A stretch of 64,000 nt of DNA from Escherichia coli (GTDB lineage: Bacteria > Pseudomonadota > Gammaproteobacteria > Enterobacterales > Enterobacteriaceae): assembly GCF_965641715.1 (NCBI RefSeq), contig NZ_OZ282453.1; one strand, 5' to 3'. Shown here piece after piece: positions 27,001 through 30,000 of the stretch (position 1 is the stretch's first letter; every line of letters begins with the position of its first letter). The position numbers were made by a program.

Positions 27001-30000
27001 CAAACTTGTCACGCTAAACCCCAAACTCAAATCAACAGCAGCCGGACGTTACCAGCTTCTTTCCCGTTGGTGGGATGCCTATCGTAAGCAGCTTGGCCTG
27101 AAAGAGTTCTCTCCCAAAAGCCAGGACGCTGTTGCGCTGCAGCAGATTAAGGAGCGTGGCGCTTTGCCGATGATTGATCGCGGTGATATCCGTCAGGCTA
27201 TCGACCGTTGCAGCAATATCTGGGCTTCACTGCCGGGGGCTGGTTATGGTCAGTTCGAGCATAAGGCTGACAGCCTGATTGCAAAATTCAAAGAGGCTGG
27301 CGGAACGGTCAGAGAGATTGAGGTATGAGCAGAGTAACCGCGATTATCTCCGCTCTGGTTATCTGCATCATCGTCTGCCTGTTATGGGCTGTTAATCATT
27401 ACCGTGATAACGCCATCGCCTACAAAGAACAGCGCGATAAGGCCGCATCCATCATCGCTGACATGCAGAAGCGTCAACGTGATGTCACTGCACTGGATGC
27501 TAAATACACTGGAGAACTGGCTGATGCCAAAGCCACTATTGATCAGCTTGAGCGCGATGTTGCTTCTGGCAAACGTCGGTTGCAGCTCAACGCAAGCTGT
27601 CCCGCGAACGGAGCGACCAGCACCGGCAGCCTGGGCGATGCTTCCAGCCCCGGACTTACTGACTCCGCTGAACGGGATTATTTCACCCTCAGAGAGCGTA
27701 TCGTCACAGTGACGAAGCAGGTTGGCTATTTGCAGGACTACATCAACACCCAATGTCTGAAATGAGCTATGATTCTGTTTTCAATTATTAAAGGAAGATA
27801 ATAATGACTAATAGAGAAATAGCTCTTGAGCAAGCCCTTATCGCTGTTATCGGCGCTATCCGAGAAGAGGATGCTGATTTGGAGCGCATAGCAGTTAGGG
27901 CTGACATGCTTTTGCTGGATAATTCACCTTATCGAATAGTTGAGCATCCCCATGTCTCAAACGCTTTAACTGAAATTGAAAAAGCACTTAATTTCAAAAA
28001 GTAAATCAAGCCGCCTCCGGGCGGTTTTTTTGTTGCCATCACCATGGGTTGGCTCATCGTAATGGCAATATCTCCACAAGCGGATAAAGAGGCTCTCAAT
28101 GTTCGATATCTACCAAATCACTATCACCACCACATCGAAATAAACGTTCACCGGCATGATGAATCGGAGCCAGCCTGAAATCGTTAATGGGTTCGAGGCA
28201 CTGGCGACCGAAACGGGCGAGTGGCTGTATTTCGCTCCGGCCGATGTGAAGTGCGTGCAGTTCACGCCAGTACCGGAAGAGCAGACCGAACAGCCAGAAG
28301 AACAAACAACGGAGTAACGAATGAGCAAACCGGACTGGGAGGCCATCGAAACGGCGTACCGGTTTGCTTTATAAATTAAGCCACACGGTTTCCGATAGTT
28401 GCTGGAAGAGGGATCAAAATTTCCCAGAATGGCTGTTGGGAAAACGTAGTTCCAGCCCAGTAATGTTCAATTTGATAGGTATAAACGAGGCAGGAGTTAG
28501 CATTGTTCAAAAGTGCCATATCACCTCTGTGAATTAAATCTTCATCAGCCTCAACTTCATAAATTGGAGAGTGAGGGTTCCTGTATTGCGACCTAAAGGC
28601 GATGGCTCCTTCTAATGTTTCACACGCAAAAATGCATTCATATCTTGATGGTGCGGAAGGCCGCATTGCTCTTCTATAAAACTCTAGCCCCCAATCTATC
28701 GAAAAGTTGATATGTCCTGCTATCGCGTCGGCAGAAAGAAAATAGCCATCGCCATGCTTTGATACTCCGCGTGGGAAAAGACTATTAACCATAACTTGTA
28801 ACTCTAGTGGCTGAATAGATGGGGTGATAGGTCTAACCATCATTCCATGAGAGTAGTAATTACCTGAGTCAACTGTGTAGTAAGTGGTCATAAAATACCC
28901 AAGGAAAAACAATGGCACTCACCGACAAGCAAGAAATGTTCTGTCGCGAGTACCTCATCGATTTAAACGCTACGCAAGCGGCTATTCGGGCGGGGTACAG
29001 CGCAAAGACAGCCAACCGTACTGCGTCCGAAAACATGTCAAAACCTGACATACAATTCAGAATCTCCGAATTGAAAGCGCAACGCAATGACTCTGTTGGA
29101 ATAAATGCAGAATATGTACTTAATCGCCTTATTGAAATCGACCAGATGGATGTGCTTGACATTCTCCTGCAAAACGGTGAGCTGAAACCCATCAAAGACT
29201 GGCCTAAGGTATGGCGCACAACGCTATCAGGAATGGATGTCGTGGAGATGGTATCCGCAGATAGCGCCGCACTTCTGAAGAAAATCAAATGGCCTGATAA
29301 GGTTAAAAATCTTGAATTGCTTGGGCGTCATGTTTCTGTTCAGGCGTTTAAAGACAACGTCAAAAATGAAGTTACTGGCGCTGATGGAGGACCAGTCAGA
29401 ACAGAAATTACCAACTTAACGCCGGAGCAGGCTGCAGAGGCGTATAGAAAAATGATGGGCTAAGTATGCCGTTACCATTTCCCTTCGATTTTAAACATCC
29501 TGATTACCAGATGGTTTTTGAATGGCGGATGGAACGCCTACAGCGCATTCGCCAGAATCCTGAAATATTGCCTGCACTAAAACAGTTTTACCGAACCAAT
29601 CCGGCTCAGTTCATCATCGACTGGGGCATGACAACGGACCCGCGTAATATTGATTATGGCCTGCCGGTGACCATTCCGTTTTTACTCTTCCCTAAGCAGG
29701 AGGAGTGGATCCACTGGATTATGGAACGCTGGGGCAATCGGGAGAATGGTATTACCGAAAAATCCCGTGAAATGGGGCTCAGTTGGACCGCGATCGGACT
29801 GGCCTGCTCGCTTTGTCTCTTCAACAAAGAAATGGTTATCGGTTTCGGCTCCCGTAAAGAGGAATACGTCGACAGCACCGGTGACCCGAAAGCATTGTTC
29901 TGGAAGGCGCGCAAGTTCGTGGAAACACTACCTGTAGAGTTTCGCGGTTCGTGGAGCGAGAAGAAGCACGCGCCATATATGCGTGTTGAGTTTCCTGAAA

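Follow-up and report, generated by a model that had tools for sequence, protein, structure and literature searches.

What kind of gene lies on the opposite strand between the lysis cassette and the terminase small subunit gene (terS) of an Escherichia coli prophage, and what may it do there? This question is raised by a stretch of 64,000 nucleotides (nt) from contig NZ_OZ282453.1 (assembly GCF_965641715.1), which is referred to below as the window. The window carries an E. coli lambdoid prophage, and an identical segment is present in three complete E. coli genomes. The gene in question occupies positions 28376–28891 of the minus strand (171 amino acids (aa) plus stop codon; ATG at 28891–28889) and encodes a protein of the DUF2441 (BC2332-like) family with a predicted ADP-ribosyltransferase (ART) fold. 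It is read here, tentatively for the reading as a whole, as a cargo gene that is expressed in the lysogen, encodes an NAD+-using ART-fold protein acting in phage–host conflict, and is silenced on prophage induction.

Coding status and boundaries of the gene

The preliminary description of this DNA noted an open reading frame (ORF) on the minus strand between the lysis cassette and terS, and this ORF proved to be a real gene. The ORF listing of the window gives it as 28376–28918 with a GTG start (180 aa), which would create a 7-nt overlap with terS. The GTG start at 28918 was rejected: all 13 of the 13 aligned homologues begin at MTTYYT or an equivalent position, and the RefSeq entry for the identical gene, named ‘DUF2441 domain-containing protein’, is 516 nt long. 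Since the homologue starts and the RefSeq call agree, the true start is the ATG at 28891. The divergent overlap with the late operon that had been proposed is consequently absent; the start codon of the gene and that of terS (ATG at 28912) are separated by a 20-nt spacer (28892–28911), which keeps the coding regions apart. The spacer carries the terS Shine-Dalgarno sequence AAGGA at 28901–28905, and upstream of the DUF2441 ATG on the minus strand just a weak G-rich Shine-Dalgarno-like sequence, TTGGGT, was seen. The spacer sequence is cargo-specific among the variants of this locus described below.

Orthologues with 78–89% protein identity were found in Klebsiella, Enterobacter and metagenomes. 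Pairwise comparison of the gene with those of Klebsiella (locus L003), Enterobacter (L019) and a metagenome contig (L021) gave proportions of nonsynonymous (pN) and synonymous (pS) differences of 0.11–0.13 and 0.68–0.74, respectively, which corresponds to a ratio of nonsynonymous to synonymous substitution rates (dN/dS) of 0.04–0.09, with near-saturated synonymous sites. Judging from these sequence comparisons, the minus-strand ORF is almost certainly a genuine gene under strong purifying selection; the possibility of a pseudogene remnant, raised earlier, does not agree with the dN/dS values.

Family assignment and predicted fold

The product was initially thought to have no features assignable to a family. 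Profile and structure searches nevertheless place it in the DUF2441 (BC2332-like) family of the ADP-ribosyltransferase superfamily. The Pfam match of the single sequence to DUF2441 is weak (E 1.4e-3), but the PHROGs match to phrog_5663 has an E value of 1e-48, and the Pfam entry PF10386 is precomputed on all 19 of the 19 database homologues. A profile built from 104 diverse members matched BC2332 (PDB 2AUA) with an E value of 4.5e-15 over residues 58–171, and an exhaustive HMMER search recovered 1803 family representatives at 50% clustering. The AlphaFold2 model made with the family alignment has a mean predicted local distance difference test score (pLDDT) of 97.5 and a predicted template modeling score (pTM) of 0.91, and it contains the ART core fold and agrees in fold with BC2332. 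Sequence, fold and invariant residues all agree with membership in the family, and it is very probable that the window protein is a DUF2441 member with the ART fold.

In published classifications, DUF2441 belongs to the ART clan of Pfam (PMC7955679), and SCOP places the ‘BC2332-like’ family (d.166.1.6) in the ADP-ribosylation superfamily (PMC3000352). A reverse-template analysis in ProFunc matched the BC2332 site with the catalytic sites of diphtheria toxin, exotoxin A and cholix toxin (PMC3024214). BC2332, the type structure of DUF2441, is a chromosomal protein of Bacillus cereus obtained in structural genomics; at 224 aa it is longer than the window protein, differs in its N-terminal part and is 19% identical to it, and membership in its family conveys fold, not activity. 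No functional study of DUF2441, BC2332 or 2AUA was found in the literature. RefSeq already labels the gene DUF2441, and it is a prophage moron encoding an ART-fold protein of an established family.

The most conserved positions of the family are R73, R83, Y144, W145 and E157, found in all 104 members, followed by G47 and E70 (103 of 104 each), S82 (96), H46 (93) and Y50 (89). The window protein keeps S44-x-H46-G47, Y50, E70, R73, S82-R83, Y144-W145 and E157. The order of the motifs is [GV]-S-x-H-G, then a helix, and later a Glu at the start of a late beta-strand. The order of H46-G47, Y50 and E157 appears to resemble that of the H-Y-E class of diphtheria-toxin/PARP-type ARTs; these residues may act as an H-Y-E motif, and the two invariant arginines may hold a phosphate-bearing substrate. 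With a protein, a nucleic acid or a small molecule as its target, the protein would use NAD+ for ADP-ribosyl transfer or would cleave it. That it is a catalytically active NAD+ enzyme is considered fairly probable.

The N-terminus (MTTYYTVDSGNYY; MTTYYTVDSGNYYSHG) contains neither a hydrophobic leader or signal peptide nor a lipobox cysteine, and the product is predicted to be cytoplasmic. A search in PADLOC-DB 2.0 returned no families at E <= 0.1, and the protein has no match in NCBIfam. It lies outside every described defence system, toxin–antitoxin family and anti-CRISPR (Acr) family.

A bounded cargo slot upstream of terS

In phage lambda, the opposite-strand gene bor, expressed from the prophage and encoding an outer-membrane lipoprotein, is located between the lysis and packaging genes. 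The earlier suggestion of a moron-type gene in the bor position is supported: the DUF2441 gene likewise stands alone between Rz and the terminase genes, runs antisense to the late operon and has a G+C content (0.42–0.45) slightly lower than that of its neighbors (0.47–0.54 upstream). The product, however, is unrelated to Bor, being a cytoplasmic ART-fold protein, and all its family matches are to DUF2441 only. The two genes differ also in that the DUF2441 gene starts within 20 nt of terS, so that its promoter must be inside terS.

The flanks of the gene were matched in 167 of 5426 complete E. coli genomes, three of which contain the DUF2441 gene; the rest carry other cargo or none. Variable presence (3/167) together with the position of a single opposite-strand accessory gene in the late region characterizes it as a moron. 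Alignment of six variants of this slot shows that at the right junction homology begins at the terS ATG or a few nt before it. The left junction is marked by a conserved 40-nt piece (28322–28361) that reads MSKPDWEAIETAY. A 17-codon mini-ORF of the plus strand (MSKPDWEAIETAYRFAL and a stop codon, 28322–28375) forms the left slot boundary and represents the 5'-end relic of another terS type. In GB089 (L062 2522–3124), the same start opens a full 200-aa gene directly upstream of the large terminase gene (terL), and because of this intact counterpart the left-junction piece is taken to have remained from a past replacement of terS. Within the mini-ORF lies a perfect inverted repeat of 10 nt (28324–28333 and 28359–28368). 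On the left, the slot is bordered by a small plus-strand ORF of the phrog_6581 family (28156–28317), the longer version of which is a RefSeq pseudogene with an internal stop; in the Enterobacter locus L019 this family directly abuts the 3' end of the DUF2441 gene.

Other variants of the slot also carry minus-strand genes at a short distance from terS: 182 aa with a gap of 19 nt in REL606, BL21, E2348-69 and others (91 genomes), 78 aa with a gap of 24 nt in EH08-18-36, and 72 aa with a gap of 22 nt in 1223. STEC1587 and FDAARGOS_1059 have no cargo. The first bases of the REL606 cargo remain in FDAARGOS_1059, which is therefore a deletion derivative, and tblastn detected no relic of DUF2441 in the ‘empty’ slot of STEC1587. 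A 170-aa minus-strand gene of 23CRST004 (L063 1863–2375) is located 119 nt before a terS of the KPDW type; inspected by eye, its product looks Rossmann-like, similar to nucleoside deoxyribosyltransferases or TIR domains. No matches were found for the 170-, 78- and 72-aa products in Pfam, PHROG or PADLOC.

The commonest cargo is the 182-aa gene (L002 4076–4624, minus strand; WP_000762846.1) of the phrog_30882 family, present in 91 of the 5426 E. coli genomes and thus 30 times commoner in E. coli than DUF2441 (91 vs. 3 genomes). Its product is annotated as ‘hypothetical’, and Pfam and PDB sequence searches with it gave no match; its structural model shows a confident ART fold (pLDDT 91). The invariant residues of phrog_30882 form an R-S-E-like set (R94-G95, W110, S151 and E156). 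In contrast to DUF2441, this family has an extra N-terminal helical bundle, and no sequence relationship between the two is detectable (hhalign probability 0.3%). Two independent ART-fold families therefore alternate in this slot, with strand, terS and distance to terS in common.

As a separate observation, the prophage of REL606 is defective and contains a truncated DUF1073 portal gene (L002 6820–7578) named ‘anti-CBASS protein Acb1 family protein’ in RefSeq. This name is probably an artefact, full-length orthologues being called DUF1073.

Conservation of the terS 5' end

Over its first 90 nt (28912–29001), terS is 97–100% identical in E. coli, Enterobacter L019 and metagenome L021, and third codon positions are alike in 28–29 of these 30 codons. 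Identity to L019 and L021 drops to 67–87% over roughly nt 90–240 of terS. The phages compared have differing terL and portal modules, and their adjoining DUF2441 genes are near synonymous saturation. In Klebsiella prophages, a 55-nt relic of the terS start is located directly upstream of the DUF2441 gene (L003 5925–5982), and the functional terS of these prophages is of the KPDW type. An unannotated 81-nt relic with 93.8% identity was also found in phage P22, between orf25 and orf80 (P22-pbi, AF527608 40745–40825, corresponding to L018 1501–1581). This linked conservation and the relics indicate that the DUF2441 gene and the first ~55–90 nt of terS travel together. The 5' segment of terS may serve as the promoter or 5' leader of the cargo, as a recombination linker, or as both, since these readings are compatible.

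Search for a promoter and possible expression of the gene

The supposition that the gene has its own promoter is logically sound: all neighbors are on the plus strand, the window offers no co-oriented neighbor, and such a promoter must lie within the terS coding sequence. Scanning for consensus promoters gave none on the minus strand here and none in the right direction in the Klebsiella intergenic region, and the candidates found with a position weight matrix (PWM) are not conserved. The best sigma-70-like candidate (29015–29041, minus strand; PWM score in the top 0.01% of the window) consists of TTGACA (29041–29036), a 15-nt spacer and TACGGT (29020–29015). The slot variants of E. coli keep this site, but L019 and L021 have a degenerate form and Klebsiella lacks it; owing to this failure of conservation it was not relied on. 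The only promoter-like element common to all slot variants and the Klebsiella relic is TGcCAT(T/A)xT at the terS start, which in the window reads TGcCATTGT (28909–28917, minus strand). This weak extended -10-like candidate overlaps the terS start codon and would give a leader of merely ~11 nt. The L003 equivalent, TTGCTT-16-CATTAT, is in the top 0.09% by PWM. Neither the consensus nor the PWM scans thus revealed a convincing promoter for the DUF2441 gene.

On the 3' side, only a weak bidirectional hairpin (28024–28011) is present, ~350 nt downstream of the gene, and the hairpin at 28324–28368 has no T tract. RNA folding of the terS 5' region was not significant on either strand (z -1.7 and -1.0). 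The Rfam scan of positions 20000–34000 gave two tRNAs only and nothing at the terS 5' region.

With a weak promoter in the initial ~130 nt of terS, the gene could be transcribed at a low level from the repressed prophage. On induction, late transcription antiterminated by Q would run head-on into it and might silence it through antisense RNA as well as transcriptional interference; an antisense interplay with the transcripts of terS or the late operon is a reasonable inference from this arrangement. A DUF2441 gene of Salmonella, the kinship of which to the window gene is not established, was among the differentially expressed genes in RNA-seq of an ordinary culture (PMC9867438), which gives an indirect hint of expression outside induction. 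Expression of the window gene in lysogens is considered slightly more probable than its silence there.

Genomic contexts of the DUF2441 family

More than 10 contexts of DUF2441 genes were examined, and no neighbor is common to them, so that the genes are stand-alone throughout. Apart from the window, the contexts include Klebsiella, Enterobacter and metagenome prophages, a Citrobacter integrase island, Mu-like prophages, a region resembling an integrative and conjugative element or a plasmid, a chromosomal site, Rhodococcus megaplasmids, and Gordonia phages, in which the gene lies between the tail genes and the integrase/repressor cassette. Given the lack of a shared partner gene, DUF2441 is not a classical toxin of a toxin–antitoxin pair. 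In this it differs from DarT-DarG, ParT-ParS and RES-Xre/MbcT-MbcA, which are paired with antitoxins; no adjacent macrodomain, ParS or Xre gene accompanies DUF2441 in the contexts examined.

Relatives are encoded at 40 loci of IMG/VR. Among the eight with at least 42% identity, seven (L022–L024 and L026–L029) adjoin a terS of the Terminase_2 type and diverge from it; the contig of the eighth (L025) ends 25 nt upstream of the gene and is uninformative. Close relatives are thus head-to-head with terS despite differing terL and portal modules, with start-codon gaps of 21 nt in L019 and 19 nt in L021. Distant relatives are located between Q and the holin gene, by lysis genes or in Mu-like phages, and many of them are likewise opposite in strand to their neighbors. 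In Mu-like phages the gene is co-oriented with the lysis and late genes, and one homologue was found in a phage that encodes a PolA of its own (L060); when the gene is expressed therefore differs within the family. Plasmids yielded 11 matches among 72,556 records, mostly Rhodococcus megaplasmids and one Mu-like prophage within a plasmid, and a hypothesis linking the gene to plasmid leading regions was rejected on these grounds.

Two further observations concern relatives of the gene. A metagenomic protein of 572 aa (P0088), the sole domain fusion among the top 150 family representatives, joins an N-terminal CHAT protease domain, recognized by eye from its motifs, to DUF2441 at residues 391–571; the sequence of this apparent fusion fits an effector-domain role in conflict systems. 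In Enterobacter hormaechei, a second opposite-strand gene (L019 5832–6386, plus strand; 184 aa, phrog_5483) is located ~300 nt beyond the DUF2441 gene. Its product shows a weak Pfam match to HEPN (Cthe_2314-like, E 0.007), and it may be further conflict-related cargo in the same accessory region.

Possible role and alternative explanations

Under the preferred reading, in which the gene is lysogen-expressed ART-fold cargo, the protein would most likely serve the lysogen, whose superinfection by other phages it would exclude or abort. As it would be a single-gene effector without an antitoxin, its target would be foreign or its activity latent. A defence role, taken by itself, is regarded as possible rather than probable.

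ARTs are also used by phages against their hosts: AcrIF11, a small stand-alone ART of phages and plasmids, ADP-ribosylates Cas8f and disables type I-F CRISPR-Cas, and Alt, ModA and ModB of phage T4 modify host proteins. The DUF2441 protein could similarly be an enzyme of counter-defence or host takeover; produced in infection or on induction, it would ADP-ribosylate an immune or housekeeping component of the host, to the advantage of the phage and not of the lysogen. The co-orientation with late genes in Mu-like phages, the PolA phage context and an Acb2/Tad1 neighbor in Klebsiella are in line with this explanation. It is nevertheless judged somewhat unlikely, as each lambdoid context examined shows the gene running against the strongly transcribed late operon and unlinked to any early promoter, a placement that fits poorly with expression early in infection. 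Moreover, the likeness to AcrIF11 exists at the fold level only (70 aligned residues, 10% identity, no sequence relationship), AcrIF11 is encoded in acr-aca operons whereas the DUF2441 gene here has no adjacent aca-like regulator, and the family is rare on plasmids (the 11 records mentioned above).

A broader hypothesis extends the preferred reading of lysogen-expressed cargo to the slot itself. The slot would be a cargo dock, in which the 90-nt terS junction provides a promoter or leader as well as a recombination handle, and into which phages swap antitoxin-less ART-fold and other small effectors; DUF2441 would be a widespread family of NAD+-dependent effectors of immunity or counter-immunity, shut off by late transcription. 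In this full form the hypothesis is speculative and considered unlikely.

The protein might, alternatively, have an ART fold and no catalysis, binding or sponging NAD+-derived or nucleotide signals or acting as a protein-binding pseudo-enzyme. This is quite improbable in view of the strict conservation of E157, R73 and R83 (104/104) and G47 (103/104), which is typical of catalytic or substrate-binding sites, and of the ProFunc match between the BC2332 site and the catalytic residues of diphtheria-type toxins (PMC3024214).

Finally, a role in cis, in which transcription or the DNA itself regulates terS and the late operon by antisense RNA or by occluding promoters, the protein being secondary, or a decaying remnant, would suit the conserved head-to-head geometry with its 20-nt gap, the ultra-conserved nucleotide sequence of the terS 5' end and the fact that any minus-strand promoter inside terS yields RNA antisense to the terS ribosome-binding site, but it is hardly credible, because dN/dS of 0.04–0.09 at saturated synonymous sites indicates selection on the protein and not on the nucleotides of the ORF, the empty slots of the sister prophages STEC1587 and FDAARGOS_1059 show that terS expression is independent of cargo, and the non-significant RNA structure (z -1.7, -1.0) and lack of an Rfam match give it no backing.

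Neighboring genes and other features of the window

The order of genes in the RefSeq annotation is Q antiterminator, tRNA, lambda-family holin, GH24 endolysin, Rz-like lysis protein and small ORFs, followed by the DUF2441 gene on the minus strand, the small and large terminase subunits, and the DUF1073 portal. According to the ORF listing and RefSeq, the plus-strand genes of the holin, endolysin and Rz are at 26545–26868, 26852–27328 and 27325–27765, respectively. The terS gene (28912–29463, plus strand) encodes a Terminase_2-type protein of 183 aa that starts with MALTDKQEMF, and its orthologues carry Pfam PF03592.

Rfam identified two tRNA genes (26147–26218 and 26227–26299, plus strand) where the late operon begins, between the genes for Q and the holin; in the identical prophage RefSeq marks a tRNA-Asn at this site. 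A 66-aa ORF inside the late operon (27804–28004, plus strand; phrog_31739) is preceded by a promoter-like site (27778–27805) and followed by a strong intrinsic terminator (28008–28027; 8-bp stem and T7). This unit (27778–28027) has the classic promoter–gene–terminator layout of a moron, on the late strand. Upstream of the prophage early region, a 2639-aa ORF (3762–11681, plus strand) encodes an AIDA-I/ECSE_1600-type autotransporter adhesin with a C-terminal beta-barrel, as recognized by NCBIfam.

Possible significance for phage–host conflict

This locus is unusual in that two ART-fold families with no relation to each other alternate in a single slot with exact boundaries, one of them being carried by the laboratory strains BL21 and REL606, and in the conservation of the terS 5' end tied to cargo. 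If the protein is inert, or the slot a mere recombination scar, the gene would be an ordinary moron. The sharp junction at the terS start and the 90-nt conservation suggest a way in which cargo is swapped and, possibly, expressed. The DUF2441 family is large, occurs in temperate phages of Proteobacteria and Actinobacteria, and has a toxin-like fold and no published activity. Together with the REL606-type cargo, it provides two testable candidates for single-gene NAD+-dependent effectors of phage–host conflict, and BL21 may serve as a tractable model for what the cargo of this slot does.

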